DNA from: Thermoanaerobaculia bacterium
GTDB lineage: Bacteria > Acidobacteriota > Thermoanaerobaculia > UBA5066
Direction: 5' to 3'
Assembly: GCA_963816185.1 (NCBI GenBank)
Contig: CAWFJJ010000006.1
Location: 1,326 to 65,325, forward strand
Length of the DNA: 64,000 nt
A program made the translations under genes and the position numbers. Within the stretch, counting starts at the first letter, position 1; each line of letters opens with the position of its first letter. The notes under the pieces are model-generated. The model worked only from the letters and a program-made list of their open reading frames with translations, searched no databases and was not told where the DNA came from. Shown piece after piece: positions 5,970 through 20,910 of this stretch.

Positions 5970-6098
5970 GGCGGCATGCCCATTCCTCCGAGAGCGGGCA
6001 GCCCGTCAGGCCAGAACGGAATTTCGTGCGACACGATCTCAATCGCCATATCATTTCGCGCGGTTTCCGGGCGGTTGACCGACGCCAGAGAGGTCGGG

Positions 6099-7100: not shown

Positions 7101-10100
7101 CGAGCAAGGCGAGCTCGGCCGCCGCATCGGAGATCGAGGCGGCCCGGATCTTCCTCGACGACCTGCCGCTCCTGAAGTTCCTCTCGCCCGCGTCGCGCGC
7201 CGCCGTGACCGCGAAGTTCGTTCCCGTCGCCTTTCCCTTCGGCGCCGTCATTCTCCGCGAGGGCGACCCCGCCGACGCCTTCTTCGTCGTCGTCGCCGGG
7301 AAAGCGCGGGCGGTGAAGACGGGGGAACAGGGCGAGGAGGTTTCGCTTGGCGTACTTCGGCCCGGAGACAGCTTCGGCGAGATGGGTCTTCTGGATCCTT
7401 CAGCAAAGCGGCAGGCCACCGTACGCGCCTCGAGCGCGGCGACGGTCCTCCGGCTCGACCGGAACGCCTTCGACGCGCTTCTTTCCGGTGATCCGGAGAT
7501 CCGGACCTGCCTGGAGCTCCACGTCAGGTACCGGAGCCTCCAGAACCTCTTCCGTCTCTACACTCCTTTTTCCACCCTTCCGCCGTCCGTCCTCGCCGGG
7601 CTCCTCCACCGGTTCGAGACGATCTCCGTCGCCGCCGGTGAGGCCGTCTTTCGACAGGGGGATGGCGAGGGGCCTCTCTTCGTCGTCGAGGAAGGGCGGC
7701 TTCGCGTCTTCACCGAAGACGATGGGCACCGGCGAAACATCGCTTATCTGCGAAAAGGCGACGTCTTCGGAGAGATCTCGGCCTTCACGGGGGAACCGAG
7801 AAAGGCCACGGTCGAGGCTGTCACGCCCTGCCGGCTCCTGAGCCTTCACCCGAGCGCCTTCCGGGCGGTCACGGACGCTCACCCGGAATTTCGCGCGGCC
7901 ATCGGACGACGTATCGCCCAGTACGACTATCGAAAAGAGGCCAGGGTGCCGCTCGACTTCGCCGACGAGCTCCTGCCCGCGGAGGCGCAGGTGGAGGAGG
8001 TGGGACCCGACCAGATCGACGAGGACGCCGATCGTCCGCCGGACGAATCTTCAGCGGAGGGATCCGCCGCTCCCTTCGCGACGGAAGACGGTCGGTTCGT
8101 CAAGGGGCCTCGGCGGATCCGCCGCTTTCGCTTCGTCCGGCAGATCGACGAAATGGACTGCGGCGCGGCCTCCCTCGCGATGGTCTGCCGCCACTTCGGC
8201 CGCGCGGTGAGCCTCGCGCGGATCCGGCAGCTCCTCTTCACGTCGACTGACGGCACCAGCCTCCGGGCGGTCTGCCGCGGTGCGGAGGAGCTGGGGCTCG
8301 CCGCGCGCTCCGTCAAGGCCTCGGCGAGGCACCTGGACCAGATGCCGCTCCCCGCGATCCTGCACTGGGGCGGCAACCACTGGGTCGTCCTTTACGACGT
8401 GAGCCCGACGGAGGCTCGCGTGGCCGACCCGGGGGTCGGGCTCAGGCGCCTTCCCCGCGCGGAGGTCGAGAAGGAGTGGACCGGCTACGCCGCCCTCTTC
8501 GACTACACGGAGGCGTTCGAGAAGGCTCCGGTGGGGCGCTCCAGCTTCGCCTGGCTCACCCGGTTCTTCCGGCCGCACGCGGGCGTCCTCGCGAAGGCGG
8601 CCGGCCTCGCCCTGATCGTCAGCGTCCTGCAGATGGTCCTCCCGGTCTTCAGCCAGGTCATCGTCGACCGGGTTCTCGTCGAGCGCGACGAGGGGCTGCT
8701 CCGGATCCTCCTTTTCGGGATGGGAGGCGTCCTCGTCTTCTCGACTCTCGCGATGGTCCTGCAGCGATATCTCCTGAGCTTCGCCGCGGTCCGGATCGAC
8801 GCCTCGACGCTCGACTTCGTCACGCGGCGCCTCCTGTCGCTTCCGATGTCCTACTTCTCGACGCGGAAGACAGGCGACATCCAGCGCCGCCTCATGGGCC
8901 TCCGGCAGGTGCGAGAGCTCCTCGTCCAGTACGGGGTCTCCTCGCTGACCGCCCTCTCGCAGCTCTCCGCGGTCCTGATCCTGATGTTCGTCTACAGCCC
9001 CCTCCTCGCGGGCGTCTTTCTCGCGACCGTCCCCCTCTACGCCCTTCTCATGCGGTACTCGAGGCGCCGGCTGCGTCCCGTCTTCGACACGCTCGAGGAG
9101 GCGTTCGGAAAGTATTCCGCCCAGCAGATCGACACCATCAAGGGGATCGAGACCGTCAAGTCGCTCGGGGCCGAAGGCTCCCTCCGTCAGCTGATGCTGG
9201 AGAGGTTCCTCGGCCTCGCCCGAAAGCAGTTCCGCGCCGACTTCACGGTCATGACCTACGAAGGCGCCGTCCAGGCCGTGAGCTTCCTCTCGACCGCCCT
9301 CTTCCTCTGGGCGGGGGCCGTCCAGGTGATGCGCGGGTCGCTCACCATCGGCGGGCTCGTCGCGTTCAACACCCTCGTCGCCCTCGCGAACGCCCCGATC
9401 GGGATCCTGCTCGCGACCTGGGACCACCTCCAGTACGGAACGGTTCTCCTCGACCGCCTGAACGACGTCTTCGAGCAGAAGCCCGAGCAGGGCGACGACC
9501 GGTCCCAGCTTCTCCCGGTCCGGACGCTCGCGGGAAAGGTGTCGCTCCGAAACGTCGGCTTCCGATTCGGCGGGCCCGAGTCGCCGTTGATCCTCGACGG
9601 CCTGACGTTCGACGTGGACCCGGGAAAGATGGTGGCGATCGTCGGCCGGAGCGGCTCCGGCAAGACGACCCTCGCCAAGCTCCTCTCCGGCCTCATGGAG
9701 CCGACCGAAGGATCGATTCTTTTCGACGGAGCGGACCTCAAGACGCTGAATTACCGGGACCTCAGGCGCCGCGTCGGCTTCGTCCTCCAGGAGAACTACC
9801 TCTTCGACGAGACGATCGCCCGGAACATCGCCTTCGGCGACGGCGAGCCCGACGTGGACCGGGTCCTTTGGGCCGCCCGGGTCGCGAGCGCCCACGAGTT
9901 CGTCGAGAGGTTTCCGCTCGGCTACGACACCCGGGTCGGCGAGTCGGGCCTCGCCCTCTCCGGCGGGCAGAAGCAGCGCGTCGCCATCGCGCGGGCCGTC
10001 TACAACCGTCCCCCGGTCCTGATCTTCGACGAGGCGACCAGCTCTCTCGACACCGAATCGGAGCGGGCGGTCAAGGAGAACCTCGACCGCCTTCTGGAGG

Positions 10101-10264
10101 GCCGGACGTCGTTCGTGATCGCCCACAGGCTCAGCACCATCCGCGACGCGGACGTCATCCTCGTCCTGGAGAAGGGACGTCTCGTCGAGCACGGGACTCA
10201 CGACGAGCTGATGGACCGCCAGGGGCTCTACTACTACCTGTCGAGCCAGCAGCTCGGGATCTAG
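7082..10264 (+). CDS. peptidase C39 domain-containing ABC exporter with two N-terminal cyclic-nucleotide-binding-like domains
   Basis: 1060-aa ORF. Two CAP/cNMP-type segments (..GDSFGEMGLL.. and ..GDVFGEISAF..). C39 catalytic motifs QIDEMDCGAASLAMV (Cys) and GGNHWVVLYDV (His). ABC membrane domain, Walker A GRSGSGKTT, signature LSGGQKQR, Walker B VLIFDEATS. Confidence 0.9.
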   Translation: MDMEAVTSKASSAAASEIEAARIFLDDLPLLKFLSPASRAAVTAKFVPVAFPFGAVILREGDPADAFFVVVAGKARAVKTGEQGEEVSLGVLRPGDSFGEMGLLDPSAKRQATVRASSAATVLRLDRNAFDALLSGDPEIRTCLELHVRYRSLQNLFRLYTPFSTLPPSVLAGLLHRFETISVAAGEAVFRQGDGEGPLFVVEEGRLRVFTEDDGHRRNIAYLRKGDVFGEISAFTGEPRKATVEAVTPCRLLSLHPSAFRAVTDAHPEFRAAIGRRIAQYDYRKEARVPLDFADELLPAEAQVEEVGPDQIDEDADRPPDESSAEGSAAPFATEDGRFVKGPRRIRRFRFVRQIDEMDCGAASLAMVCRHFGRAVSLARIRQLLFTSTDGTSLRAVCRGAEELGLAARSVKASARHLDQMPLPAILHWGGNHWVVLYDVSPTEARVADPGVGLRRLPRAEVEKEWTGYAALFDYTEAFEKAPVGRSSFAWLTRFFRPHAGVLAKAAGLALIVSVLQMVLPVFSQVIVDRVLVERDEGLLRILLFGMGGVLVFSTLAMVLQRYLLSFAAVRIDASTLDFVTRRLLSLPMSYFSTRKTGDIQRRLMGLRQVRELLVQYGVSSLTALSQLSAVLILMFVYSPLLAGVFLATVPLYALLMRYSRRRLRPVFDTLEEAFGKYSAQQIDTIKGIETVKSLGAEGSLRQLMLERFLGLARKQFRADFTVMTYEGAVQAVSFLSTALFLWAGAVQVMRGSLTIGGLVAFNTLVALANAPIGILLATWDHLQYGTVLLDRLNDVFEQKPEQGDDRSQLLPVRTLAGKVSLRNVGFRFGGPESPLILDGLTFDVDPGKMVAIVGRSGSGKTTLAKLLSGLMEPTEGSILFDGADLKTLNYRDLRRRVGFVLQENYLFDETIARNIAFGDGEPDVDRVLWAARVASAHEFVERFPLGYDTRVGESGLALSGGQKQRVAIARAVYNRPPVLIFDEATSSLDTESERAVKENLDRLLEGRTSFVIAHRLSTIRDADVILVLEKGRLVEHGTHDELMDRQGLYYYLSSQQLGI

Positions 10265-11466
10265 ATGGACGAGGCGCCGTTCCTCCCGAGCGACCCGCCG
10301 CCCTTCGCGGCCCGGAGCCTCGCATGGCTCCTGATCGCCCTCTTCGCAGTGGCCGCTGTCGTATCGGTGGCGGTCAAGGTTCCCGAAACGGTCGTCGCCC
10401 CGTTCGCCCTTGTGCCCATGCGCGGCACCGATCCGGTTCGCGCTCCGCACGGAGGCACGGTCACGGAGGCTCTTGCCGTCGAGGGGCGCCCCGTGGCCAA
10501 GGGCGCGAGGCTCTTTGCCATCCGGTCGCAGGAGTTCGGGGACAGGGCCTCCGAGCGGAAGGCGCTCGAAGCAGGCCTCGGCGGACTTGCCGAGAGCCTT
10601 TCCAACGCCCGGAAGAGATTCGACAGCGAGGCCGGCGAGAGGCGTGAGGAGGCCCGGAGTCTCGCCGATCGCGCGGCCTATCTCGATCGGATGCTGGCTT
10701 TGAAGAGGGAGCAGCTCGCCTTGACGCTGGAGCAGTCCGAGCGGGCGAAGAAGCTCGCCGACCAGGGGCTCGCGAGCTTCAACGACCGTTCCGACGCCCA
10801 GATCCGGCACAGCCAGACCGTCATGGAGCTCGAGCAGCTCCAGTCCGACCGGAGCGCGACCGGGAGCGCCATCGAGAAGCTTCGCGACACCGAAGCGGCG
10901 AAGGGGACCGAGTTCCACGAGGAGGAGCGGGTCCTCGAGGAGAAGATCGCTCAGGCGAGAATCAGGATCGGCGCGCTCAGCGGGGGGCGCCCTCCGCCGG
11001 CGGAGACGAATCTGGAAACGAGCTGGCCGTCACTTCTCCGTGCGACGGCACCGTTCTCGGCGTCACGGCGCGGCGGGCCGGGGCGGTGGTCCGCGAAGGC
11101 GACGTCCTCGCCGAGGTCGCCTGCTCCGCCGAGACCCTGCAGGCCGAGCTGAGCCTCCCGCAGGGAGGGCTCTCCCGGATCCACCCCGGCCAGAGCGTCC
11201 GCCTCCTCCTCGACGCGTTCCCGTACCAGCGCTACGGCGTCCGCGGGGGAAGGGTCCGGTGGGCCAGCCCCTCCGGGGTCGGGACCCGCGAGGCCGCGAC
11301 CTTCCCCGTCCTCGTCGACCTGGACGAGCAGGCCGTCCCGGCGGACGGCGAGCGCAAGCCGCTCCTGGCGGGAATGCGCGGCACCGCGCGCGTCGTCGTC
11401 GGCCGCCGCACGCTCGTCGAGTACGCCTTCGAGCCTCTCCGGCAGCTTCGGGAGAACCTCCGGTGA
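10265..11466 (+). CDS. HlyD-family membrane-fusion/adaptor protein, reading frame interrupted once
   Basis: The ATG abuts the exporter stop (TAGATG). The N-terminal ~240 codons (TM helix LAWLLIALFAVAAVV, long coiled coil) are in one frame. The C-terminal barrel part (NELAVTSPCDGTVLGVTARRAGAVVREGDVLAEV...GMRGTARVVVGRRTLVEY) is in another. The two join only if the run GGGGGG at 10982-10987 gains or loses one G. Confidence 0.75.
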
Positions 11467-11532
11467 CGCGGAAGAGCTTCGCTCGACGCGACGCAACTCA
11501 CGCTCGAGACCTTCCGGAGCGCCGACGCCGCG

Positions 11533-12438
11533 ATGCGCCGCTGCCTCGACGTGGCGCGTGCCGCCTGCCGGACCGAGCTTCCGCTCCTCCTCCTCGGCGA
11601 GTCGGGGACCGGAAAGACGCTCCTCGCCCAGGCGATCCACAACTCCTCTCCGAGAGCGTCGGCTCCCTTCGTCTCCTTCAACGCCGCGGCCCTCTCCGAC
11701 ACGCTCCTCGACAGCCAGCTCTTCGGCCACGAGAAAGGGGCGTTCACGGACGCCAAGCAGCCGCTGCGCGGCAAGTTCGAGGTCGCCGACGGCGGGACCC
11801 TCTTCATCGACGAGATCGCCGACATGAGCCCGCTCGCCCAGGCGAAGATCCTCCGGGCGGTCGAATACGGAGAGTTCGAGAGGCTCGGATCCGAGCGGCT
11901 CCGCAAGGCGGACGTCCGCCTGATCTCGGCCACCCGCCACCCGCTGGAGCGGTTTGCGAACACCGAGCAGTTCCGGAGCGATCTCTTCTACAGGCTCGCG
12001 GGGCTCACCGTCACCCTTCCCCCGCTGCGCGAGCGGCCGAACGACCTGCGCGAGCTCGTCGCGGCCTCGATCCATCGCGCCGCTCACGCACAGGGACGGA
12101 CCATCTCCGGTCTCTCCCAGAAGGCCGCCGATGCCCTTTTCTCGTATCACTGGCCCGGGAATCTCCGGGAGCTCGACCTCGTCATCCACGCCGCAGTCGC
12201 GATGACCGAGGGCTCGGTGATCGAGGAATTTGCGATCCTGGTCCGAAACAACGGCGGGCCCGGGACGTCCCCTTCCGCCGCGCGGCCGGTCCCTGCGGCC
12301 GACCTGAGCCTCCGGGCCGTCGAGCGAGACCACATTCACCGGGTCCTCCGGGAGCTCGGGGGGAACAAGACGAGGGCCGCCAGGACCCTCGGCATCTCGC
12401 GCTCCCGCCTCGAGAGGAAGCTCAACGACGCGAAGTGA
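11533..12438 (+). CDS. sigma-54-dependent transcriptional activator (bEBP) lacking an N-terminal sensory domain
   Basis: 301-aa ORF. AAA+ core GESGTGKT, GAFTDA (GAFTGA variant), LFIDEIADM, WPGNLRELD. C-terminal Fis-type HTH NKTRAARTLGISRSRLERKL. Only ~22 in-frame codons separate the HlyD stop from the first ATG, so there is no room for a receiver, GAF or PAS module. Confidence 0.85.
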   Translation: MRRCLDVARAACRTELPLLLLGESGTGKTLLAQAIHNSSPRASAPFVSFNAAALSDTLLDSQLFGHEKGAFTDAKQPLRGKFEVADGGTLFIDEIADMSPLAQAKILRAVEYGEFERLGSERLRKADVRLISATRHPLERFANTEQFRSDLFYRLAGLTVTLPPLRERPNDLRELVAASIHRAAHAQGRTISGLSQKAADALFSYHWPGNLRELDLVIHAAVAMTEGSVIEEFAILVRNNGGPGTSPSAARPVPAADLSLRAVERDHIHRVLRELGGNKTRAARTLGISRSRLERKLNDAK

Positions 12439-12573: not shown

Positions 12574-12589
12574 TGGAACGGTCCTTGCT
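12574..12589 (+). promoter_or_regulatory. sigma-54 (-24/-12) promoter heading the peptide-gene array
   Basis: TGGAAC-GGTCC-TTGCT. GG (12575-76) and GC (12587-88) have the canonical 12-nt register of TGGCAC-N5-TTGC. Located 135 nt downstream of the bEBP stop and 42 nt upstream of the first leader-type RBS and start. Confidence 0.6.
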
Positions 12590-12630
12590 CCGCCCGGGCC
12601 CGGTCCCGAATTCGAGAAAGGAGAAACGAC

Positions 12631-12772: not shown

Positions 12773-12913
12773 ATGAAGAAGACCCCGAAGAAAAGCGCCC
12801 GGACAAGCTTCTCAAAGAAGACGCGGTCAAGGACCTCGCACCAAGCTCCGCCAAGGGCAGGCGGCACGAGGCGGCACGGGAAGGTCTGTGACAGGGGTGG
12901 ATCGAGCATCTGA
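12773..12913 (+). pseudogene. divergent or decayed leader-peptide gene copy (46-codon ORF still open)
   Basis: MKKTPKKSARTSFSKKTRSRTSHQAPPRAGGTRRHGKVCDRGGSSI. The N-terminus (MKKTPKK) and C-terminus (..RGG-SSI) match the family, but the central AVKDLxxKPAKGG block is encoded out of frame (DAVKDLAPSSAKG in another frame). Confidence 0.4.
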
Positions 12914-12968
12914 CGAGCGACCTCCAGCTCGGCAAGGTTCTCGTCCGAGAGATTCCTGTCACTGCGAC

Positions 12969-13190
12969 ATGAAGACGGGCCGCCGCAAGACGAAGCCGTC
13001 GCCGGGGTTCGTCCCCCTCAGGGACCTCGTCCCCCGAAACGACCCCAAGGGCGGGTCGGCCGGGAAGACGGTATTCGGTGAACGTCCCCCGATCGCTCGA
13101 GACAGAAGAAAAGCACCCCTTCAAGGATGTTCCGGCCGAACGAAGGCAGAAGCCGGGTCACGACCGAAACAGGAAGAAAGGAGAAACGCC
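12969..13190 (+). repeat. R-element copy 1 (Arg-rich ORF MKTGRRKTKPSPGFVPLRDLVPRNDPKGGSAGKTVFGERPP.., fused in frame to precursor A by a 1-nt difference)
   Basis: ~225-nt element shared with 5 other copies. It ends in the conserved box CCGGCCGAACGAAGGCAGAAGCCGGGTCACGACCGAAACAGGAAGAAAGGAGAAACG plus the start codon of the next gene. Confidence 0.7.
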
Positions 13191-13376
13191 ATGAAGAAGA
13201 CCACGAAGAAAAGCTCCTCGAAGGCCTCTCACAAGAGAGCCCGCAAAAACCTCGACGTCACGCCTGCCAAGGGCGGGACCGTCCGGGGAGGCGGCAAGGC
13301 GGGCTCGGGCAGGACTACTGTCAGCGACCTCCAGATCAGCAAAGTTGTCGACAAGAGTTCAGCCGTGCTGTTCTGA
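13191..13376 (+). CDS. precursor peptide A: MKKTTKKSSSKASHKRARKNLDVTPAKGGTVRGG / GKAGSGRTTVSDLQISKVVDKSSAVLF
   Basis: ATG preceded by AAAGGAGAAACGCC. 61 codons. Family leader plus a 27-residue C-terminal part. Confidence 0.8.
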   Translation: MKKTTKKSSSKASHKRARKNLDVTPAKGGTVRGGGKAGSGRTTVSDLQISKVVDKSSAVLF

Positions 13377-13399
13377 GAGCGACCTGCTCGAAGACTGGC

Positions 13400-14542
13400 A
13401 TGGTACGGCTTCCGACGATCCCGGACACTCCCGCCAAAGGCCCGGCTCCGCTCCATGCACGCTGGCTCGAAGAGGCCCTCGGGGGAAAGATCCCCTCCGA
13501 GCCCCACGCCACGTGCGAGAGCTGCCCCATGCTCCCTGTGCCCGGCGGCGCGGACGGGGCCCGGGACGCGGTCTTCTTCAATCCCAAGACGAAGTGCTGC
13601 ACCTACCTGCCGAGGCTTCACAACTTTCTCGTCGGCGCGATCCTGGCAGACGAGGCGCCCGACATGGCCGAAGGGCAGGCGCGCGTTCTCGAGAGGATCG
13701 GAAAAAGGGTCGGCGTGACGCCGCTTTGGGTCGGCGCCGGTGGAGCGTACAGCCTCATGTACGACCACGGTGACGGGGTCTTCGGCCACAGCGAGGCGAT
13801 GCGCTGCCCCTACTACCTCGAGGATCGGATCGGCGGCGGCTGCGGGATATGGCGTCACCGCAATTCCATCTGCATGACCTGGTTCTGCAAGCACGAGCGC
13901 GGGGCCCGGGCGCTGCGGTTCTGGGACTCGGCCAAAGAGCTGCTGATGGCCGTCGAGGAGAACCTCGCGATCCACTGCCTCGTCACCCTCGGTTTCGACG
14001 ACGCGGCGCTCCGGACCAATTTCCCGTTCAAGGTTCCGAAGTCTCAGCGGACGGAAACCGTGAAGGGGGACGAGCTCGACGGCACGGTGAGCCCCGAGAG
14101 GTACAAGGCCCTCTGGGGAAGCTGGGCTGGCCGCGAGAAGGAGCTCTACCTCCTAAGCGACGGGATCGTCCGGAACATGGAGTGGAAGGACGTCGAGCGA
14201 ATCGGCGGCGCGAACGTCGCTCTCCTCTCGCAGCTCGCACGCGCTGCCTACCAGACGGCAGCCAGCGACGCTCTTCCGGAGCGCCTCGAAATCGGCAACC
14301 TCAACGTCATCGGCGCCGGGCGTAAGACCGTGCGCCTCGGCACCTACAGCCCATACGACCCCATCGATGCTCCTGCCGCGCTTCTTCCGGCATTGCCCGC
14401 CTTCGACGGCTCCAGGGTACCCGACGCCCTCCGCGCGATCGAGAAGGATCATGGGCTCGTCCTGAGCCCCGAGCTCGTCCGAAAGCTCGTCGACTACGGC
14501 CTGCTCCGCGCGGTGACCGCCCCCGAAGACGAGCGAGTCTAA
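13400..14542 (+). CDS. Cys-rich protein, paralogue 1 (YkgJ/FliB-like CxxC...CC metal-cluster motifs); candidate peptide-tailoring enzyme
   Basis: 380 codons from ATG 13400 within ORF 13127..14542, 23 nt after precursor A. Conserved Cys pattern C-ESC...KCCTYLPRL...MRCPYYLEDRIGGGCGIWRHRNSICMTWFCKHE. The CPYYLEDRxxxxC...RxxxC block resembles the PF03692 (CxxCxxCC / flagellin lysine-N-methylase FliB) family as I remember it. Confidence 0.7.
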   Translation: MVRLPTIPDTPAKGPAPLHARWLEEALGGKIPSEPHATCESCPMLPVPGGADGARDAVFFNPKTKCCTYLPRLHNFLVGAILADEAPDMAEGQARVLERIGKRVGVTPLWVGAGGAYSLMYDHGDGVFGHSEAMRCPYYLEDRIGGGCGIWRHRNSICMTWFCKHERGARALRFWDSAKELLMAVEENLAIHCLVTLGFDDAALRTNFPFKVPKSQRTETVKGDELDGTVSPERYKALWGSWAGREKELYLLSDGIVRNMEWKDVERIGGANVALLSQLARAAYQTAASDALPERLEIGNLNVIGAGRKTVRLGTYSPYDPIDAPAALLPALPAFDGSRVPDALRAIEKDHGLVLSPELVRKLVDYGLLRAVTAPEDERV

Positions 14543-14605
14543 CCAGAACTCGATGAGAAGGCCGAAGCCGGGTCATGAACAAATCAGGGCAAAAGGAGAA
14601 ACGAC

Positions 14606-14737
14606 GTGAAGAAGACCACGAAGAAAAGCCCCTCGAAGGCATCTCACAAGAAGGCGGTCAAGAACCTCGAGCTCAAAACGGTTAAGAGCGGGACGGTCCG
14701 AGGAGGAGTACCCGCGGTCCAAAAGTCAGGGAGATAG
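14606..14737 (+). CDS. precursor peptide B: MKKTTKKSPSKASHKKAVKNLELKTVKSGTVRGG / VPAVQKSGR
   Basis: GTG start 6 nt after AAAGGAGAAACGAC. 43 codons. TAG stop at 14735. Confidence 0.8.
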   Translation: MKKTTKKSPSKASHKKAVKNLELKTVKSGTVRGGVPAVQKSGR

Positions 14738-14747
14738 GAGGAGCAAC

Positions 14748-14885
14748 ATGAAAAAGATCGCGAAGAAGGGCGCCCCGAAGGCCTCTCACAAGAAATCGGT
14801 CAAGGACCTCGAGATCAAGCCCGCCAAGGGCGGGACGGGCGAGACGGTCCGTGGCGGCAAGATGATCGACAAGATCCACATCTGA
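14748..14885 (+). CDS. precursor peptide C: MKKIAKKGAPKASHKKSVKDLEIKPAKGGTGETVRGG / KMIDKIHI
   Basis: ATG after GGAGGAGCAAC. 45 codons. Leader carries the 3-residue insert GET. Confidence 0.8.
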   Translation: MKKIAKKGAPKASHKKSVKDLEIKPAKGGTGETVRGGKMIDKIHI

Positions 14886-14921
14886 CGAGCGCCGCCTGCT
14901 GCAAGGATCGCCCGACCTTCG

Positions 14922-15145
14922 ATGATGAAGACAGGCCGCCGAGGACCAAGCCGTCGCCGGGGGTTCGTCCTCCTCAGAGATCTCATCCCTCGAAACGACC
15001 CCAAAGGCGGGTCGGCCGGGAAAACGGTATTCGGTGAACGTCCCACGGTCCTCGAGACAGAAGAAAAGCACCCCCATGAGGATGTTCCGGCCGAACGAAG
15101 GCAGACGCCGGGTCACGGCCGAAACAGGAGGAAAGGAGACACGAT
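14922..15145 (+). repeat. R-element copy 2 (intact 75-codon ORF 14922..15149: MMKTGRRGPSRRRGFVLLRDLIPRNDPKGGSAGKTVFGERPTVLETEEKH...)
   Basis: Same element as 12969, 15772, 16505, 18386 and 18945. The ORF stop overlaps the precursor D start (ATGA). Confidence 0.7.
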
Positions 15146-15286
15146 ATGAAGAAGACCACGAAGAAGACCCCGAAGGCCTCGCACAAGAAGGCGGTCAGGA
15201 ACCTCGACGTCAAGCCCGCGAAGGGTGGAACGGTCCGTGGCGGAATACATGGTGGCTGGGACCAGCTCGCGAACAAGAAAGTTTGA
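15146..15286 (+). CDS. precursor peptide D: MKKTTKKTPKASHKKAVRNLDVKPAKGGTVRGG / IHGGWDQLANKKV
   Basis: ATG after AAAGGAGACACGAT. 46 codons. Confidence 0.8.
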   Translation: MKKTTKKTPKASHKKAVRNLDVKPAKGGTVRGGIHGGWDQLANKKV

Positions 15287-15373
15287 GTTCCTGGAACACC
15301 CTTCTTAGAAAGTCCGGTCGAACGAAGGTAGAAGCCGGGTCACGACCGAAACAGGAAGTAAGGAGAAGACGTC

Positions 15374-15520
15374 ATGAACAACCCCAAGAAGAAGAGCGCC
15401 TCGAAGGCCTCCCACAAGAGGAAGGTGAAGGACCTCGAGATCAAGCCCGCCAAAGGAGGGACCGTCCGTGGAGGCAAGGTCTTTCCCAAGGTGACCACGG
15501 GTTTGCTCGACAAGTACTAG
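15374..15520 (+). CDS. precursor peptide E: MNNPKKKSASKASHKRKVKDLEIKPAKGGTVRGG / KVFPKVTTGLLDKY
   Basis: ATG after GTAAGGAGAAGACGTC. 48 codons. Confidence 0.8.
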   Translation: MNNPKKKSASKASHKRKVKDLEIKPAKGGTVRGGKVFPKVTTGLLDKY

Positions 15521-15596
15521 CGAGGCTGAAGTTACCCCTTTCGTCGCGCGACCTCGCGCTCGGTCACGACCGAAACAGGAAGAAGGGAGACACGAC

Positions 15597-15734
15597 ATGA
15601 AGAAGAACGCGAAGAAGAACCCTCCGAAGGGTTCCCGAAAGAACGCAATCAAGGACCTCGAGATCAAGCCCGCCAAGGGCGGGACGGACGGGACGGTCCG
15701 TGGCGGCAAGTTCGAGACCAAGATCCACATCTGA
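15597..15734 (+). CDS. precursor peptide F: MKKNAKKNPPKGSRKNAIKDLEIKPAKGGTDGTVRGG / KFETKIHI
   Basis: ATG after AGAAGGGAGACACGAC. 45 codons. Leader insert DGT. Confidence 0.8.
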   Translation: MKKNAKKNPPKGSRKNAIKDLEIKPAKGGTDGTVRGGKFETKIHI

Positions 15735-15771
15735 CGAGGGCCGCTTGCCGTAAGGGCCGATCGGCCCCTCG

Positions 15772-15996
15772 ATGATGAAGACAGTCCGCCGAGGACCAAG
15801 CCTTCGCCAGGGATTCGTTCCCCTCAGGGACCTCGTGCCCTGAAACGACCCCAAGGGGGGGTCCGCTGGGAAGACGGTATTCGGCGAACGTCCCCCGGTT
15901 TCCGTGACAGAAATGACACAGCGCTTCCAGGATGTTCCGGCCGCACGAAGGCAGAAGCCGGGTCACGGTCGAAACAGTAAGTAAGGAGAAGACGTC
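15772..15996 (+). repeat. R-element copy 3 (ORF interrupted by TGA at 15841: MMKTVRRGPSLRQGFVPLRDLVP*)
   Basis: Nucleotide-level homologue of the other R copies, but with an in-frame stop inside the otherwise conserved PRNDPKGG block. Confidence 0.65.
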
Positions 15997-16128
15997 ATGA
16001 ACAACCCCAAGAAGAAGAGCGCCTCGAAGGCTTCCCACAAGAAGACGGTCAAGAACCTCGAGGTCACGCCCGTCAAGGGCGGGAAGGTCCGTGGGGGCTT
16101 CCCGACGCCATGGAAAAACAAGGTCTAA
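15997..16128 (+). CDS. precursor peptide G: MNNPKKKSASKASHKKTVKNLEVTPVKGGKVRGG / FPTPWKNKV
   Basis: ATG after GTAAGGAGAAGACGTC. 43 codons. Confidence 0.8.
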   Translation: MNNPKKKSASKASHKKTVKNLEVTPVKGGKVRGGFPTPWKNKV

Positions 16129-16174
16129 TGCCGCCCGAAATGACGCGCGAATCCAGAAGAAAGGAGAAACGAAC

Positions 16175-16306
16175 ATGAAAAAGACCTCGAAGAAGAGCGC
16201 CTCGAAGGCATCTCACAAGAAGGCGGTCAAGGACCTCGAGGTCAAGCACGCCAAGAGCGGGACGGTTCGCGGAGGACTGCCCCCCGGTCCACCAACCTAC
16301 AAATGA
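16175..16306 (+). CDS. precursor peptide H: MKKTSKKSASKASHKKAVKDLEVKHAKSGTVRGG / LPPGPPTYK
   Basis: ATG after GAAAGGAGAAACGAAC. 43 codons (3' part of ORF 16091..16306). Confidence 0.8.
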   Translation: MKKTSKKSASKASHKKAVKDLEVKHAKSGTVRGGLPPGPPTYK

Positions 16307-16327
16307 GTGGACAAAATGAGAACCGAC

Positions 16328-16453
16328 ATGAAGAAGACCACGAAGAAAGACCCTTCGAAGGCCTCTAAGAAGAAGGCGGTCAAAAACCTCGAGGTCAAGC
16401 CCGCGAGGGGTGGAACGGTCCGCGGAGGCTGGGACCCGACCAAAGCGCGATAG
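16328..16453 (+). CDS. precursor peptide I: MKKTTKKDPSKASKKKAVKNLEVKPARGGTVRGG / WDPTKAR
   Basis: 41 codons. No obvious SD. An in-frame ATG at 16316 would add MRTD. Starts 22 nt after precursor H. Confidence 0.7.
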   Translation: MKKTTKKDPSKASKKKAVKNLEVKPARGGTVRGGWDPTKAR

Positions 16454-16504
16454 CGTCGAAACGAGTCACTCGAAACGACCCCTTCTCCGAAAGTGAACCG
16501 CGAG

Positions 16505-16725
16505 ATGAAGACAGGCCGCGGTAAGACAAAGCCCTCGCCGGGGTTCGTCCCCCTCAGGGACCTCATCCCCCGAAACGATCCCAAGGGCGGGTCGGCCGGG
16601 AAGACGGTATTCGGCGAGCGTCCCCCGGTCCTCGAGGCAGAAGAAAAGCACCCCTTCAAGGATGTTCCGGCCGAACGAAGGCAAAAGCCGGGTCACGACC
16701 GAAACAGGAAGAGAGGAGAGACGAC
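16505..16725 (+). repeat. R-element copy 4 (ORF 16493/16505..16729: MKTGRGKTKPSPGFVPLRDLIPRNDPKGGSAGKTVFGERPPVLEAEEKH...)
   Basis: Belongs with copy 1 to a subclass that differs from copies 2, 5 and 6 by a compensated pair of 1-nt indels near the 5' end. Preceded by two TCGAAACGA boxes (16456, 16470). Confidence 0.7.
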
Positions 16726-16914
16726 ATGAAGAAGAACACGAAGAAGACAGCCTCCAAGGCAAAGGGGCCCAAGGCGACGAAGAATCTCGACGTCAAGCCC
16801 GCCAAGGGCGCGAAGGTCCGTGGTGGAACTGTAAACAAGGGGTGGATCGAAGTTTCATCCTTCAGTTTTAATGCGGAACCCACCGTCAGTGTGACCGCGA
16901 AGAAGCCGTCCTGA
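16726..16914 (+). CDS. precursor peptide J: MKKNTKKTASKAKGPKATKNLDVKPAKGAKVRGG / TVNKGWIEVSSFSFNAEPTVSVTAKKPS
   Basis: 62-aa ORF in the track. RBS GAGAGGAGAGACGAC. Stop overlaps the GT41 start (TGATG). Confidence 0.8.
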   Translation: MKKNTKKTASKAKGPKATKNLDVKPAKGAKVRGGTVNKGWIEVSSFSFNAEPTVSVTAKKPS

Positions 16915-18386
16915 TGAGCACCGGCTGGCCGAAGGGCTGCCGCATGCTCGCGGCGGGCAAGTATGCGAGCGGCCTCGCGGCCTTCGAACCGGCCGTCCGG
17001 GCGAGTCCGGACTCTGCGGCCGCACGATTCCACCTCGCCCGGGCGAGCTTCGCCCTAGGGGAGGTCGAGAGGGCGACCCGGCAGCTTCGGGCGGCACTCC
17101 GGATCCGCACGGATATCCGAGCTCTGCGGTTCCTGGCCACGATCGCCCCGTTCGACCCGCGCCTCGACCACGCGGCGATCCTGAAGGTCCGCCGCGCGCT
17201 GGCCGCTGCGGTTCGCGCTCGAACCGTCGCGCCCGCCAGGGCGATCGTCGTCGGGAGCCCGGCCAGGAAAGTGCTCAAGGTTGGCTACGTCTCGTCTTTC
17301 TTCGACAAGGACAACTGGATGAAGCCGGTGTGGGGGCTGATCGATCACCACGACGCCAAGAGGGTGGAGATCCACCTTTTTGCCGACGTGCCGCGCGTTT
17401 CTGCGGTGCGTCGGCGGGCGCGTGCGAGCGCGGCGCACGTCCACGACATCTCGCGCCTTGACAACGATGTGGCCGCGCGGCTGATCGCCCGGACGGGGCT
17501 CGACGTCCTCGTGGATCTCAATCAGTACAGCCGGGTCGGCCGGATGCCGCTTTTTTCGACCAGGCTGGCGCCGGTCGTCGTCGCGTGGTTCAACATCTTC
17601 GGGACCTCGGGAATGCCGGTTTTCGACGCGCTGATCGGCGATCGATGGCTCGTCCGCGACGTCGAGAAGCCTTGGTACCTCGAAAAGATCGTGAAACTCC
17701 CGTTCTCGTCGCTGACTTTCGCGGTGGACTATCCGGTCCCTGACGTCGGGCCGCCGCCTTTCTTGCGCAACGGCTTCGTCACGTTCGGAAGTCTTTCGTC
17801 GCTGTACAAGCTCAACGACGGCGTCGTCGGCACCTGGGCCGACATTCTGAAGCGGAGCCCGGGAAGCCGTCTTCTCCTGGGCAATGCGGATCTGGGAGAC
17901 CCCGGCAACCGAGCGCACACTCTCGAGCGATTCACCGCGCGCGGGATCGAGCCCGCGCGCGTCACGTTGCTCGGGCCCGACGAGCACTACGAGTTTCTCC
18001 GAAACTACGACGCGATTGACCTCGCTCTCGACACGTTCCCCTACAACGGAGGCACGACGACCACCGAGGCGATCTGGCAAGGAGTCCCGGTCGTCGCGTT
18101 CTTGGGGGACCGGTGGATCTCGCGTACCAGCGCCTCCCTGCTGGAAAACGCCGGTCTTGAGGGCTTCGTCAGCCGGGACGTCCGCGGTTATGTCGAAACG
18201 GCCGTCCGGTGGGGGTCGGGAGCAAAGGCGGAAGAACGGAGAGAGCTCCGCCGCACGATGAGGAAACGCCTGAAAGCCTCACCCGTCACCGACTGCGCGA
18301 GCCTCGCGCGCTGCATCGAGGACGCTTACGTCCAATTGTGGGGCGCGAGGACTCGCTCCGCTCTCCCTCAGCGGATGACAGCGTGA
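16914..18386 (+). CDS. TPR-containing GT41-family glycosyltransferase (OGT/SPINDLY-like)
   Basis: 490-aa ORF. N-terminal TPR-like helices. C-terminal block VTFGSLSSLYKLND...LLLG...IDLALDTFPYNGGTTTTEAIWQGVPVVAF matches the GT41 catalytic-domain signature (DTFPYxGxTTxxxALWxGVPVV). Confidence 0.85.
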   Translation: MSTGWPKGCRMLAAGKYASGLAAFEPAVRASPDSAAARFHLARASFALGEVERATRQLRAALRIRTDIRALRFLATIAPFDPRLDHAAILKVRRALAAAVRARTVAPARAIVVGSPARKVLKVGYVSSFFDKDNWMKPVWGLIDHHDAKRVEIHLFADVPRVSAVRRRARASAAHVHDISRLDNDVAARLIARTGLDVLVDLNQYSRVGRMPLFSTRLAPVVVAWFNIFGTSGMPVFDALIGDRWLVRDVEKPWYLEKIVKLPFSSLTFAVDYPVPDVGPPPFLRNGFVTFGSLSSLYKLNDGVVGTWADILKRSPGSRLLLGNADLGDPGNRAHTLERFTARGIEPARVTLLGPDEHYEFLRNYDAIDLALDTFPYNGGTTTTEAIWQGVPVVAFLGDRWISRTSASLLENAGLEGFVSRDVRGYVETAVRWGSGAKAEERRELRRTMRKRLKASPVTDCASLARCIEDAYVQLWGARTRSALPQRMTA

Positions 18387-18606: not shown

Positions 18607-18741
18607 GTGAAGAAGATCACGAAGAAAGGTCCCTCGAAGGCCCCCAAGAAGAGGACGACGAAGAATCTCGACGTCAAGCCCGCCAAGGGCGGGACGATCC
18701 GCGGGGGGAGCCTCCCCCGACAGTGGAAGTGGATCGAGTGA
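18607..18741 (+). CDS. precursor peptide K: MKKITKKGPSKAPKKRTTKNLDVKPAKGGTIRGG / SLPRQWKWIE
   Basis: GTG after AAAGGAGAAACGAC. 44 codons. Confidence 0.8.
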   Translation: MKKITKKGPSKAPKKRTTKNLDVKPAKGGTIRGGSLPRQWKWIE

Positions 18742-18776: not shown

Positions 18777-18908
18777 ATGAAAAAGACCACGAAGAAGAAC
18801 CCTCCGAAGGTGTATCGAAAGAAGGCAATCAAGGACCTCGAGATCAAGCCCGCCAAGGGCGGGACGGGCGAGACAGTCCGTGGCGGCAAGGATAAGATCC
18901 ACATCTGA
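18777..18908 (+). CDS. precursor peptide L: MKKTTKKNPPKVYRKKAIKDLEIKPAKGGTGETVRGG / KDKIHI
   Basis: ATG after GAAAGGAGAAACGCC. 43 codons. Leader insert GET as in precursor C. Confidence 0.8.
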   Translation: MKKTTKKNPPKVYRKKAIKDLEIKPAKGGTGETVRGGKDKIHI

Positions 18909-19168: not shown

Positions 19169-19312
19169 GTGAAGAAGATCACGAAGAAAGGTCCCTCGAA
19201 GGCTTCCAAGAAGAGGACGACGAAGAATCTCGACGTCAAGCCCGCCAAGGGCGCGACGGTTCGTGGCGGAGTGCATGGCGGTTGGGACCAGATCGCGAAC
19301 AAGAAGATTTGA
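19169..19312 (+). CDS. precursor peptide M: MKKITKKGPSKASKKRTTKNLDVKPAKGATVRGG / VHGGWDQIANKKI
   Basis: GTG after AGAGGAGAAACGAC. 47 codons. Confidence 0.8.
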   Translation: MKKITKKGPSKASKKRTTKNLDVKPAKGATVRGGVHGGWDQIANKKI

Positions 19313-19393: not shown

Positions 19394-19537
19394 ATGAAGA
19401 AGAACACGAAGAAGACAGCCTCCAAGGCAAAGGGGCCCAAGGCGACGAAGAACCTAGAGGTCAAACCCGCCAAGGGGGCGTCGGTCCGTGGCGGAGTGCA
19501 TGGTGGCTGGGACCAGGTCGGGAACAAGAAGTATTAG
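19394..19537 (+). CDS. precursor peptide N: MKKNTKKTASKAKGPKATKNLEVKPAKGASVRGG / VHGGWDQVGNKKY
   Basis: ATG after AGAGAGGAGACACGAC. 47 codons. The stop abuts the Cys-rich paralogue 2 ORF. Confidence 0.8.
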   Translation: MKKNTKKTASKAKGPKATKNLEVKPAKGASVRGGVHGGWDQVGNKKY

Positions 19538-20782
19538 TTGCCCTCTGATCAAGTGACCTCTCCGAAGACCCGCGCGGTCCGGCTCCCGTCGATCACCGAT
19601 GCTCCCGCCAGGGGCCTGGCACCGCTTCATGCGCGCTGGCTCGAGGCGGCGCTCGGGGGCAAGATTCCTTCCGAGCCACACGCGGCGTGCGACAACTGCG
19701 CGATGCTGCCGGTGTCCGGAGGCGCGGATGAAGAGCGCGGCGCAGTCTTCTTCAACCCCAGGACGAAGTGCTGCACTTACCTGCCGAGACTTCACAACTT
19801 TCTCGTCGGGGCGATCCTCGCAGACGAAGCGACCGATATGGCCGAAGGGCGTGCCCGCGTCCTGGAGAGGATCGGGAAGAAGGTCGGCGTGACGCCGCTC
19901 TGGGTCGGCGCCGGCGGCGCGTACAGCCTCGTGTACGACCACGGAGACGGGGTCTTCGGCCACAGCGAGGCGATGCGCTGCCCCTACTATCTCGAAGACC
20001 GGATCGACGGCGGCTGCGGGGTGTGGCGTCACCGCAATTCCATCTGCATGACCTGGTTCTGCAAGCATGAGCGCGGGGCCCCGGCGCTGCGGTTCTGGGA
20101 CTCGGCCAAAGAGCTGCTGATGGCCGTCGAGGAGAATCTCGCGATCCATTGCCTCGTCACTCTGGGTTTCGACGACGCGGCGCTCCGGACCAATTTCCCG
20201 TTCAAGGTTCCGAAATCTCAGCGGTCGGAAACCGTGAAGGGGGACGAGCTCGACGGCACGGTGAGCCCGGAACGATACAAGGCTCTCTGGGGGAGCTGGA
20301 CGGGCCGCGAGGAGGAGCTCTACCGCCAATGCGACGCGATCGTCCGAGACATCGAGTGGAAGGACGTCGAGCGCATCGGCGGCGCGAGCGTCGCACTCCT
20401 GTCGCAGCTCGCGCGCGCGGCCTATCAGGCGGTGATCCGTGACGACCTTCCCGAGCGGCTCGAGATCGGCAATCTCAGCGTCATCGGCACGGGGCGCGGG
20501 ACCTTGCGCCTGGCCACGTACAGCGCCTACGACCCCATCGACGCCCCGGCCGCGCTTCTCCCCGTGCTTCCCGCGTTCGACGGCTCCAGGGTGCCCGACG
20601 CCCTTCGCGCGATCGAAAGGGACCATGGGCTCGTCCTGAGCCCCGAGCTCGTCCGAAAGCTCGTCGACTACGGCCTGCTCCGCGCGGTGGACGCCCCCGA
20701 AGACGAGCAAGTCTGGCGAAACTCCATGAAAAGGCGGAAGCCGGGTCATCGCCAAAACAGGATGAAAGGAGAAACGACATGA
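19538..20782 (+). CDS. Cys-rich protein, paralogue 2 (YkgJ/FliB-like motifs)
   Basis: 414-aa ORF. Start is TTG 19538 or GTG 19553. About 47 substitutions over ~378 aligned residues versus paralogue 1 (manual count), and all 9 Cys of paralogue 1 are conserved. It lacks the stop used by paralogue 1 and reads 22 codons further, ending in an ATGA overlap with precursor O. Confidence 0.7.
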   Translation: MPSDQVTSPKTRAVRLPSITDAPARGLAPLHARWLEAALGGKIPSEPHAACDNCAMLPVSGGADEERGAVFFNPRTKCCTYLPRLHNFLVGAILADEATDMAEGRARVLERIGKKVGVTPLWVGAGGAYSLVYDHGDGVFGHSEAMRCPYYLEDRIDGGCGVWRHRNSICMTWFCKHERGAPALRFWDSAKELLMAVEENLAIHCLVTLGFDDAALRTNFPFKVPKSQRSETVKGDELDGTVSPERYKALWGSWTGREEELYRQCDAIVRDIEWKDVERIGGASVALLSQLARAAYQAVIRDDLPERLEIGNLSVIGTGRGTLRLATYSAYDPIDAPAALLPVLPAFDGSRVPDALRAIERDHGLVLSPELVRKLVDYGLLRAVDAPEDEQVWRNSMKRRKPGHRQNRMKGETT

Positions 20783-20910
20783 AGAAGATCACGAAGAAAG
20801 GTTCCTCAAAGGCTTCCAAGAAGAAGGCGGTCAGGAACCTCGACGTCAAGCCTGCGAAGGGCGGGACGGTCCGTGGAGGGGCAACCAGACTCGACAAGTG
20901 GCCCGGGTAG
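20779..20910 (+). CDS. precursor peptide O: MKKITKKGSSKASKKKAVRNLDVKPAKGGTVRGG / ATRLDKWPG
   Basis: ATG after GAAAGGAGAAACGAC. 43 codons. Confidence 0.8.
   Translation: MKKITKKGSSKASKKKAVRNLDVKPAKGGTVRGGATRLDKWPG

Follow-up and report, generated by a model that had tools for sequence, protein, structure and literature searches.

Leader-tagged precursors of an acidobacterial peptide-export locus carry segments homologous to the T6SS protein Hcp

Precursor array and identity of the cores

The cores of two small precursor peptides, named here J and A, are, as judged by sequence, homologous to adjacent segments of the T6SS tube protein Hcp, far past what chance or beta-strand composition would give. 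They belong to an array of fifteen small leader-tagged precursor genes on the + strand, at 13191-20910 of the window (the whole 64-kb stretch of DNA analysed), from a Thermoanaerobaculia-type soil acidobacterium. All of these precursors share a Lys-rich leader terminating in ..KGGTVRGG; the RGG closes it in 15/15 cases, as it does in the family alignment, and the core, 6-33 residues long, starts directly after. The leaders of six precursors gave no match at E<=10 to NCBIfam leader models (NHLP/Nif11 included), and no description of a peptide family with Hcp-segment cores behind an export leader was found in the literature searched. Residue numbering refers to P0029, a 161-aa acidobacterial Hcp that matches P. 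aeruginosa Hcp1 (1Y12) at 2.5e-31 and whose close relative P0037 sits within a canonical T6SS cluster. The precursor genes are:

13191..13376, + strand: precursor A, leader MKKTTKKSSSKASHKRARKNLDVTPAKGGTVRGG, core GKAGSGRTTVSDLQISKVVDKSSAVLF, matches Hcp 45-71
14606..14737, + strand: precursor B, core VPAVQKSGR, without Hcp match; class kept in L006 and P0292
14748..14885, + strand: precursor C, core KMIDKIHI, like Hcp 'KDEIHI', too short for proof
15146..15286, + strand: precursor D, core IHGGWDQLANKKV, matches the Hcp C-terminus (149-161)
15374..15520, + strand: precursor E, core KVFPKVTTGLLDKY, Hcp match not significant
15597..15734, + strand: precursor F, core KFETKIHI
15997..16128, + strand: precursor G, core FPTPWKNKV, class shared with P0020
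16175..16306, + strand: precursor H, core LPPGPPTYK
16328..16453, + strand: precursor I, core WDPTKAR, like the C-terminal 'WDLTK', not significant
16726..16914, + strand: precursor J, core TVNKGWIEVSSFSFNAEPTVSVTAKKPS, matches Hcp beta2 (about 20-40)
18607..18741, + strand: precursor K, GTG start, core SLPRQWKWIE
18777..18908, + strand: precursor L, core KDKIHI, 5/6 identical to Hcp 'KDEIHI' (p about 0.02-0.03)
19169..19312, + strand: precursor M, GTG start, core VHGGWDQIANKKI, matches the Hcp C-terminus
19394..19537, + strand: precursor N, core VHGGWDQVGNKKY, matches the Hcp C-terminus; abuts Cys-rich gene 2
20779..20910, + strand: precursor O, core ATRLDKWPG

An earlier note on this DNA had given the genes and cores of A and J exactly as they were recovered here, and its reading of the cores as adjacent Hcp segments is supported, J covering about residues 20-40 and A about 45-71. 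When the concatenated cores J+A were compared with PF05638 (T6SS_HCP), as that note had proposed, a significant match was obtained (E=5e-10, 40.2 bits; gathering cut-off 23.5) in a single stretch running from query 4-55 to profile 17-67 of 129; with the order swapped to A+J, the score reached 27.2 bits only, in two stretches. The single cores stay lower, with 18.3 bits for core A (E=0.003, profile 43-67) and 12.6 bits for core J (E=0.17, profile 16-39), and neither single gene product reaches the 23.5-bit cut-off of PF05638 (precursor A, 19.7 bits). At the residue level, core A is identical to P0029 45-71 in 24/27 positions, and core J agrees with KGYVEVSSFSFGA (Hcp 22-34) in 10/13 aligned residues; shuffling gave p<=0.01 for each. 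Convergent beta-strand composition, which the same note had kept in play, is excluded by identities of 21/21 to 25/27 with real Hcp proteins. A core identical to core A is also present in L018, and P0277, from the public collection, is identical in sequence to precursor J.

The resemblance noticed in J and A extends beyond these two cores: D, M and N correspond to the Hcp C-terminus, and the family as a whole tiles nearly all of Hcp. Cores D, M and N each share 11 identical residues with P0029/P0032 and match the last 13 residues of Hcp, the identity being 11/12 aligned residues for D against P0032 (p<=0.01) and 11/13 for N against P0029 149-161. Two relatives of core K, TAPRHEKWIE and SLQSTRFEKWIE, match Hcp 16-26. 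The possibility that J and A are the two halves of a split Hcp gene was rejected, the fragments being overlapping, redundant, non-collinear and matched to several Hcp subfamilies.

Tiling of Hcp by the leader family

The leader family was defined by the window, 13 related loci and 62 matches among 1.84 billion representative proteins, which together supply 114 cores. Of these, 56/114 gave a match to Hcp at p<=0.01, and the matching cores cover 152/161 Hcp positions. When the fragments were arranged in Hcp order as a composite query, 336 full-length Hcp proteins were retrieved (best E=1.9e-31). The best matches are spread over several Hcp sequence clusters or subfamilies, suggesting that fragments were recruited repeatedly, and the tiling boundaries vary widely around identical Hcp motifs. 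The coverage hot-spots are the most conserved Hcp segments, where a likeness is most readily detected. About half of the cores, mostly of 6-12 residues, are individually non-significant against Hcp, and no similarity to Hcp was found for the recurrent classes VPAVQKSGR, PTAVE.., LPPGPP.. and FPTPW... Lys is present in 110/114 cores, against about 84 expected.

The controls gave 1/125 matches with reversed Hcp, chance-level matches with other T6SS proteins and 0/8 matches for outgroup cores. One peptide stretch is identical to its counterpart in 21/21 residues and in 9/21 codons, and a second one in 21/22 residues and 10/20 codons; identical peptides written with different codons point to an old divergence under purifying selection. 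Every Hcp-like fragment gene comes with a separate start, leader and stop, and core types, leaders and ribosome-binding sites are all kept across independent metagenomes. Fusions of the leader to a full-length Hcp, which the earlier note had suggested looking for, do not occur among the 1.84 billion representatives: the 58 credible leader-family matches are all 43-81 aa long, and a complete Hcp beta-barrel domain of ~130-160 residues is absent from these products.

Some cores are mosaic or permuted, such as FYAVEHG+AGSGRASLG+VDGESTNKGH, RKAGE+LKIKL and HTTIGSATGGGGSGRA+KGWIDI. On alignment, 'RKAGEKPLE' and the C-terminal 'GGWD..NKK' fall in the parts of Hcp1 that hold G90 and R157, two residues that presumably lie on opposite faces of the ring. 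The G90C+R157C form of Hcp1 was reportedly seen by Ballister et al. in 2008 to stack its rings into tubes. This double mutant is on record (PMC11011275).

Putative export, regulatory and tailoring genes

The precursors are embedded in a locus comprising the following features:

5601..7100, + strand: PpiC-type rotamase-domain protein (Pfam Rotamase_2), syntenic first gene of the locus
7082..10264, + strand: peptidase-containing ABC exporter (PCAT; Pfam cNMP_binding x2, N-terminal, then Peptidase_C39, ABC_membrane, ABC_tran)
10265..11466, + strand: HlyD-family membrane fusion protein (NCBIfam type_I_hlyD, NHLM_micro_HlyD)
11467..12438, + strand: sigma-54 enhancer-binding protein (Pfam Sigma54_activat 2.9e-59, HTH_8), AAA+, without sensory domain
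12574..12589, + strand: candidate sigma-54-like -24/-12 site TGGAACGGTCCTTGCT, one mismatch to TGGCAC-N5-TTGCW
13400..14542, + strand: Cys-rich protein 1, new N-terminal domain with 8 invariant Cys and C-terminal RiPP recognition element (RRE)
16505..16729, + strand: conserved ~74-aa upstream ORF/element, one of six copies
From 12969, 14922-15149, 15844-15984 (degenerate), 18386-18610 and 18945-19172: other copies of this element
16914..18386, + strand: TPR + GT41 glycosyltransferase, OGT-like (Pfam Glyco_transf_41 3.6e-35 plus TPR)
19538..20782, + strand: Cys-rich protein 2, paralogue of protein 1, 87% identical

The PpiC-like protein, which weakly matches NCBIfam TIGR04500 'peptide maturation system', is encoded 5' of the exporter in L001, L002 and L010 as well, and a rotamase gene is also found in the outgroup locus L021. 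In the exporter, the C39 domain (Pfam Peptidase_C39 1.2e-32) displays the motifs Q..DCGAASL, NHWVVL and VADP, with the catalytic Cys, His and Asp, and the top NCBIfam match is TIGR03796 (NHLP-type bacteriocin exporter) at 527 bits, below the cut-off of 853. Frameshifts were observed in the window in degenerate precursor-like ORFs at 12631-12960 and in the HlyD gene, which is read in two frames (10265-11152 and 11086-11466) and has an intact 400-aa orthologue in L012. The sigma-54 activator is syntenic in L001, L002, L010 and L012. The site at 12574-12589 is the sole near-consensus one, in a window-wide count not above chance, and a convincing sigma-54 promoter ahead of each operon was not found in the window. 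The ~74-aa element, without match in Rfam and Pfam, has its frame preserved by compensating indels, and its stop overlaps the start of the following precursor.

The C-terminal part of the Cys-rich proteins has an RRE fold and is predicted to bind the leader; a neighbouring RRE is a feature that the precursors share with RiPPs. The catalytic part, with its 8 invariant Cys, has no relative in Pfam, NCBIfam or PDB. Homologues elsewhere likewise adjoin GG-leader peptides and cNMP-PCATs, and the Cys-rich RRE proteins constitute an uncharacterised, phylogenetically widespread family tied to such peptides and cNMP-gated exporters. The closest PDB relatives of the GT41 protein are 5DJS (E=9e-60), SPINDLY, XcOGT and human OGT; 5DJS, deposited under the title 'Tetratricopeptide TPR_2 repeat protein', is taken here to be a bacterial OGT. 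This kinship suggests a predicted Ser/Thr O-glycosylation of the cores.

Precursors A and J, both double-glycine-led, each lie directly 5' of a candidate tailoring gene, as had been pointed out before: the stop of A is 23 nt 5' of Cys-rich gene 1, and the GT41 gene begins with an ATG that overlaps the stop of J. These pairings recur within a synteny kept in L001/L012, L002/L010, L003 and L018. In four loci (window, L012, L002/L010, L003) GT41 comes after a gene with a GWI(E/D)(V/I)-type core, and in five (the same four and L018) the Cys-rich gene comes after one with a VDKSS/IDKASP-type core. No T6SS (tss) genes were found in the 64-kb window or in L001, L002, L003, L010, L012 and L018. The outgroup loci, which share the Cys-rich enzyme and the cNMP-PCAT, have Pro/Lys/Thr-rich, non-Hcp cores, and the machinery itself would thus have no intrinsic link with T6SS.

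Possible functions of the predicted exported peptides

Since the cores are Hcp segments held near-identical by purifying selection, the function considered most likely is Hcp mimicry, and the locus is probably, with some reserve, a RiPP-like export array whose cargo imitates parts of a presumed T6SS target. The leader would be bound by the RRE of the Cys-rich proteins, the core probably tailored by the Cys-rich enzyme and the OGT-like GT41, and the cNMP-gated C39 exporter with HlyD would cleave after GG and export the core, expression being presumably governed by the sigma-54 activator. The released linear peptides would copy Hcp strands, loops and ring-face segments, would bind Hcp or an Hcp-recognising partner, and would thereby disturb or report on T6SS tube assembly or attack. 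Several observations count against Hcp mimicry: exported peptides must reach Hcp, which is assembled in the attacker's cytoplasm; about half of the cores are non-significant and some classes non-Hcp; outgroup cores are non-Hcp and T6SS genes are absent from the loci; the hot-spots fall on easily detected conserved segments, HlyD is frameshifted in the window and convincing sigma-54 promoters were not found. More tentatively, the array may represent an evolved library of Hcp interface mimics, built by repeated recruitment of pieces from several Hcp subfamilies behind one leader and secreted as a T6SS countermeasure or sensor ligand against neighbours; this extension is possible but doubtful.

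The Hcp pieces could also be mere raw material for short Lys-containing beta-strand peptides that, once tailored, work as bacteriocins, microcins or pheromones on unrelated targets. The cargo of PCATs is usually a bacteriocin or a signal, several window cores are not Hcp-like, the outgroup enzyme and exporter are encoded with non-Hcp cores, and the Lys enrichment suggests that the Cys-rich enzyme perhaps needs only a Lys-containing substrate. The residue-for-residue conservation despite strongly diverged codons, the best matches in several subfamilies and the many boundaries around the same motifs would not, however, be expected if only general physicochemistry were important; this exaptation is rather unlikely. 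With cores that are linear, mosaic and permuted, short linear epitopes seem to matter instead of a fold, and the cNMP-gated export and sigma-54 activator gene point to regulated, not constitutive, production; both would suit peptides that imitate Hcp breakdown products as a kin alarm or priming signal, jam the attack-sensing of competitors or soak up Hcp-chaperoned effectors. Yet no Hcp-peptide receptor is encoded in the locus and we know of none elsewhere; a role as signal or decoy appears improbable. The likeness to Hcp might also be put down to accident or to convergence in beta-strand composition, to the remains of a decayed Hcp pseudogene or to an assembly artefact, in view of the chance matches of short peptides and the frameshifts; this reading is hardly credible and is refuted by the clean shuffle, reversed-database and outgroup controls, along with the Pfam E-value, the features kept across metagenomes and the non-collinear, individually complete genes.

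Were Hcp their target, the peptides would provide a new diffusible defence against, or manipulation of, T6SS, and a natural ready-made set of interface peptides to try as T6SS inhibitors; should the interface-mimic library be real, this would be the first bacterium to tile a weapon's structural protein into exported peptides. Whatever the target, the locus shows that a conserved structural protein can furnish precursor cores, which then stay under its sequence constraints. Leader-borne Hcp pieces also explain the 'Hcp' labels on several 50-70-aa ORFs in JGI's metagenome annotation.

Comparison with known systems

Like the GG-leader cargo of PCATs of the CvaAB/ComAB type (class II microcins, bacteriocins, competence pheromones), the precursors have a leader ending in GG, a C39 ABC exporter with an HlyD-type adaptor and many small cargo genes alongside; here, however, the leader is unusually Lys-rich, the exporter bears tandem cNMP-binding domains, and the cargo consists of Hcp fragments instead of a folded bacteriocin. 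NHLP/Nif11-leader RiPPs and prochlorosins also have multi-copy precursors in which highly diverse cores follow a conserved leader, and TIGR03796 is the best, though sub-threshold, NCBIfam match of the present exporter. They set a precedent for a precursor part derived from a housekeeping protein, the leader in their case and the core here. The present locus has no LanM or cyclodehydratase, its tailoring candidates being the Cys-rich RRE protein and GT41. In contrast to the RRE-dependent RiPP maturases MccB, NisB, McbB, lasso B1 and PqqD, the catalytic part is Cys-rich and without relatives. As for Hcp/TssD itself (PF05638; Hcp1, 1Y12), each peptide amounts to at most about 20% of the domain, which precludes a beta-barrel or hexamer, and the genes lie in a peptide-export locus instead of a T6SS cluster; the cores are nevertheless homologous to it, often near-identical, and the C-terminal ones stop where Hcp does.

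Precursor cores derived from the T6SS tube protein Hcp

The plus strand of the window carries, at 13191-20910, an array of 15 small genes (precursors A to O), each encoding a core of 6-28 residues behind a Lys-rich leader of consensus MKKTTKKSxSKASHKKAVKNLDVKPAKGGTVRGG. The leaders had no match among the NCBIfam leader models.

Precursors A and J and the enzyme genes of the array
13191-13376, plus strand: precursor A, ending 23 nt upstream of the Cys-rich gene
13400-14542, plus strand: Cys-rich gene 1 (380 aa), candidate tailoring enzyme
16726-16914, plus strand: precursor J, its stop overlapping the start of the TPR+GT41 gene
16914-18386, plus strand: TPR+GT41 gene (OGT-like glycosyltransferase)
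19538-20782: Cys-rich paralogue 2, 87% identical to Cys-rich protein 1

The region 12000-20000 has a G+C content of 0.61-0.65, vs 0.66-0.70 in the flanks, and its AT skew is strongly positive (up to +0.34); GC3-poor codons (e.g. AAA, GTT, AGT, TCA), unusual for this genome, are used in the cores. Just upstream of the locus, the minus strand encodes an S9 prolyl oligopeptidase (2884-5136) and a TANGO2-family protein (5178-6005).

An earlier note had proposed that the cores of J and A are consecutive segments of Hcp. The cores that it quoted match the window genes exactly, and the two genes do lie directly ahead of the GT41 and Cys-rich genes, respectively. Using hmmscan, the J+A concatenate matched PF05638 (T6SS_HCP) with 40.2 bits (E=5e-10; cut-off 23.5) in a single uninterrupted stretch, query 4-55 onto profile positions 17-67 of 129. 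Core A alone scored 18.3 bits (profile 43-67), core J alone 12.6 bits (profile 16-39) and the reversed concatenate A+J 27.2 bits, in two stretches. The single stretch, the profile ranges and the lower score in reverse order bear out the proposal that the cores of J and A are adjacent Hcp segments; neither gene by itself qualifies as an Hcp.

Tiling of Hcp by the leader family

A word-indexed search with precursor A retrieved 28 small proteins sharing the leader, whose cores correspond to further, overlapping Hcp pieces. These comprise N-terminal pieces (e.g. FGDIKGESTDKDHKDWVV), many versions with varying start and end points of the region around ..LQISKVVDKSSAVLFQKC.., the pieces LFQKCATGEHFPKAKLL, VRKAGEKPLEF and ..MKIKLNDVLITGA, and C-terminal pieces (e.g. 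HGGWDLIGNKKY). Several leader-family ORFs of 50-70 aa are already labelled 'Hcp' by the JGI annotation. When such fragments were joined in Hcp order, the composite query brought up 336 Hcp proteins at full length (160-165 aa; best E=1.9e-31). The best hit, P0029, is a genuine protein of the Hcp1 type: it matches 1Y12 at E=2.5e-31, and its close relative P0037 sits in a canonical T6SS cluster (TssBC, TssA, TssE/F/G, ClpV, VgrG).

P0029 contains GGAGSGRTTVGELQISKVVDKSSAVLF, identical to core A at 24/27 positions, and terminates in IHGGWDQIGNKKY, which is matched by cores D, M and N (IHGGWDQLANKKV, VHGGWDQIANKKI, VHGGWDQVGNKKY), ending at the Hcp stop. Taken one by one, five window cores reach p<=0.01 (A, J, D, M and N), and core L is borderline (p about 0.02-0.03; KDKIHI vs Hcp KDEIHI). 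Hcp-like motifs (..IHI, KWIE, DKWPG vs DKYPG, WDPTK vs WDLTK) also occur in cores C, F, K, O and I, which are too short for proof; cores B, E, G and H have no similarity to Hcp.

Cores were gathered from the window, from 13 related loci and from 1.84 billion representative proteins scanned exhaustively with a profile. The scan gave 62 leader matches, 58 of them credible (43-81 aa), and the leader::full-length Hcp fusions whose search the earlier note had suggested were absent from these 58. Each core was aligned by Smith-Waterman to 120 Hcp proteins and its score compared with those of 100 shuffled versions, so that the minimum attainable value is p<=0.01. This level was reached by 56 of the 114 cores, many short ones being impossible to place on Hcp. 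The significant cores jointly cover 152 of 161 Hcp positions, missing only 1-3 and 109-114, the most conserved segments being those where similarity is easiest to detect. With Hcp sequences clustered by single linkage at 60% identity, the best matches fell on the P0029 type (26 cores), the Hcp1 type (13) and two 'FGDIKGESTDKDHKDW' clusters (10). With the Hcp database reversed, 1 core of 125 scored above the maximum of its own null, and none of 8 cores from outgroup loci was significant against Hcp. The comparison shows that the cores are homologous to Hcp and that the family as a whole tiles it.

An Hcp gene split collinearly through repeated insertion of an element does not explain fragments that overlap, are redundant and lie out of order. 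Other T6SS proteins (locus L015), considered as a source of the non-Hcp cores, matched at chance level. An Hcp origin of the leader itself was likewise discarded, its best alignment (DVKPAKGGTVRGG vs Hcp 142-154) being not significant (p=0.16-0.31).

Some cores are mosaics, such as RKAGE+LKIKL and FYAVEHG+AGSGRASLG+VDGESTNKGH, suggesting that short linear epitopes matter and not the fold. Of the 114 cores, 110 contain Lys (random Hcp fragments would give about 84), and so do all 15 window cores (P about 0.001); this residue may be a tailoring site or a binding determinant. The few Hcp relatives with an organism name belong mainly to Terriglobia (Bryobacteraceae, Acidobacteriia, Candidatus Acidoferrales); the named producers of leader-family peptides are Thermoanaerobaculia.

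A second leader type, (M)VAKKGKTTKKMKDLAARKVTSAQANKVKGG, with cores such as HTTIGSATGGGGSGRAKGWIDI, occurs in the related loci L018 (8695-8880), L002/L010 (7792-7932, preceding GT41) and L007 (116-253). Such cores fuse the Hcp 38-52 loop directly to a beta2-like KGWIDI strand. In Candidatus Acidoferrum (L016/L017, 10001-10724, on a 589-kb contig), a 46-aa gene, MKAKKTTKRLRKSKKLESTKPLSTGKVSVGDLQISKVVDKSSAVLF, combines the Hcp piece of core A with a diverged leader without GG. The genomic context differs: the gene has a SET-domain gene (of the protein Lys methyltransferase type) as its neighbour and is flanked by two genes for MacB/FtsX permeases.

Age and selection

The core of the protein P0003 is identical to Hcp P0030 at 21/21 residues and at 9/21 codons, including a Ser encoded by AGC vs TCC. 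An N-terminal core in L002 shares 21/22 residues and 10/20 codons with P0118, and window core A shares 21/27 residues and 9/21 codons with P0030. Identical residues with differing codons indicate an old divergence of the cores under strong purifying selection, and this codon divergence rules out recent fragment capture from the Hcp genes compared. Between the window and L018, precursor A differs by five amino-acid changes in the leader, the 81-nt core being identical.

Synteny of the precursor loci

The locus is conserved: the same gene order is found in a Thermoanaerobaculia MAG (L001/L012, 871-kb contig) and in L002/L010, and parts of it in L003 and L018. A GWI(E/D)(V/I)-type core gene lies directly upstream of GT41 in all four loci that include GT41, and a VDKSS/IDKASP-type core gene directly upstream of the Cys-rich gene in five loci. 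This recurrent order speaks for a dedicated pairing of substrates and enzymes. Neither a full-length Hcp gene nor other T6SS genes were found in the window or in the related loci searched.

Each precursor operon is preceded by an element of ~230 nt (window 12969-13190, 14922-15149, 15844-15984, 16505-16729, 18386-18610, 18945-19172; also L002/L010 9554-9778, L003, L004, L007, L012 and L018). The element holds a conserved ORF of ~74 aa, MKTGRRKTKPSPGFVPLRDLVPRNDPKGG|SAGKTVFGERPPVLETEEKHPFKDVPAERRQKPGHDRNRKKGETT, with its own ..DLxPRNDPKGG motif and a stop that overlaps the start of the next precursor. Its frame is preserved by two compensating 1-nt indels, which suggests that it is translated; ahead of precursor A, the copy differs by 1 nt and is thereby fused in frame to A. 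The element has no similarity to Hcp and no Pfam match, and a structured RNA was rejected on account of the lack of Rfam match and covariation support.

A promoter scan revealed no enrichment of sigma-54 sites. At 12574-12960, a sigma-54-like site (TGGAACGGTCCTTGCT) and a ribosome-binding site precede degenerate, frameshifted precursor-like ORFs, in order ..TTKKTPSGFYKKAVKDLDVKPAK.., MKKTPKKSARTSFSKK.. and ..QGWIEHLTSDLQLGKV..., possibly decayed or mis-sequenced extra precursors.

Predicted export and tailoring machinery

Four genes lie upstream of the array; exporter, RRE (RiPP recognition element) and GT41 domains are recognized at the locus.

Genes upstream of the array
PpiC-like gene
ABC exporter: 1060 aa, two cNMP-binding domains and a C39 peptidase domain, catalytic motifs readable in the translation
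10265-11466: HlyD adaptor, in two frames (10265-11152, 11086-11466); the L012 orthologue is intact (400 aa)
Sigma-54 activator: no sensory domain

The HlyD frame is split either by an indel introduced in sequencing or because the gene was recently inactivated. The nearest PDB entry to GT41 is 5DJS (E=9e-60), a bacterial OGT, followed by SPINDLY, XcOGT and human OGT. The Cys-rich protein had no match in Pfam or NCBIfam, even at E<=10, and its catalytic part none in the PDB using Foldseek. A presumed resemblance to YkgJ/FliB (CxxCxxCC) is unsupported by these profile searches. Cys-rich homologues adjoin GG-leader peptides in Ktedonobacterales (L014, 7672-9089), Blastocatellia (L021, 630-8660) and Tepidisphaeraceae (L022, 4651-10636), the last two loci also carrying cNMP-binding PCATs (peptidase-containing ABC exporters). 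Their cores are Pro/Lys/Thr-rich (e.g. IAVSDPGPDDPPYKPPTKPKGTK) and not Hcp-like. The Cys-rich RRE protein family is widespread and appears to represent an undescribed RiPP-like class; the machinery belongs to this broader system, with Hcp cargo confined to the Thermoanaerobaculia-type branch.

Proposed function and comparison with known systems

The RRE would bind the leader, and the cores would be tailored, cleaved after the GG and exported. The residue-level constraint common to peptides and Hcp finds its simplest explanation if the peptides bind what the matching Hcp segments bind, either Hcp, by mimicry of its strands or ring faces, or a partner that recognises Hcp. As inhibitors, peptides outside a cell would face the problem of reaching cytoplasmic Hcp. 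Suggestively, residues G90 and R157 of Hcp1 lie in the regions to which 'RKAGEKPLE' and the C-terminal 'GGWD..NKK' piece align. The G90C+R157C mutant reportedly stacks rings into tubes (Ballister and colleagues in 2008), which would place the two residues on opposite ring faces. This Hcp1 double mutant is on record (PMC11011275).

Full-text searches returned no description of Hcp-fragment peptides, and a literature search on T6SS in Thermoanaerobaculia nothing relevant. Export and maturation follow a logic of a kind already known; what is new is the cargo, together with the Cys-rich RRE enzyme.
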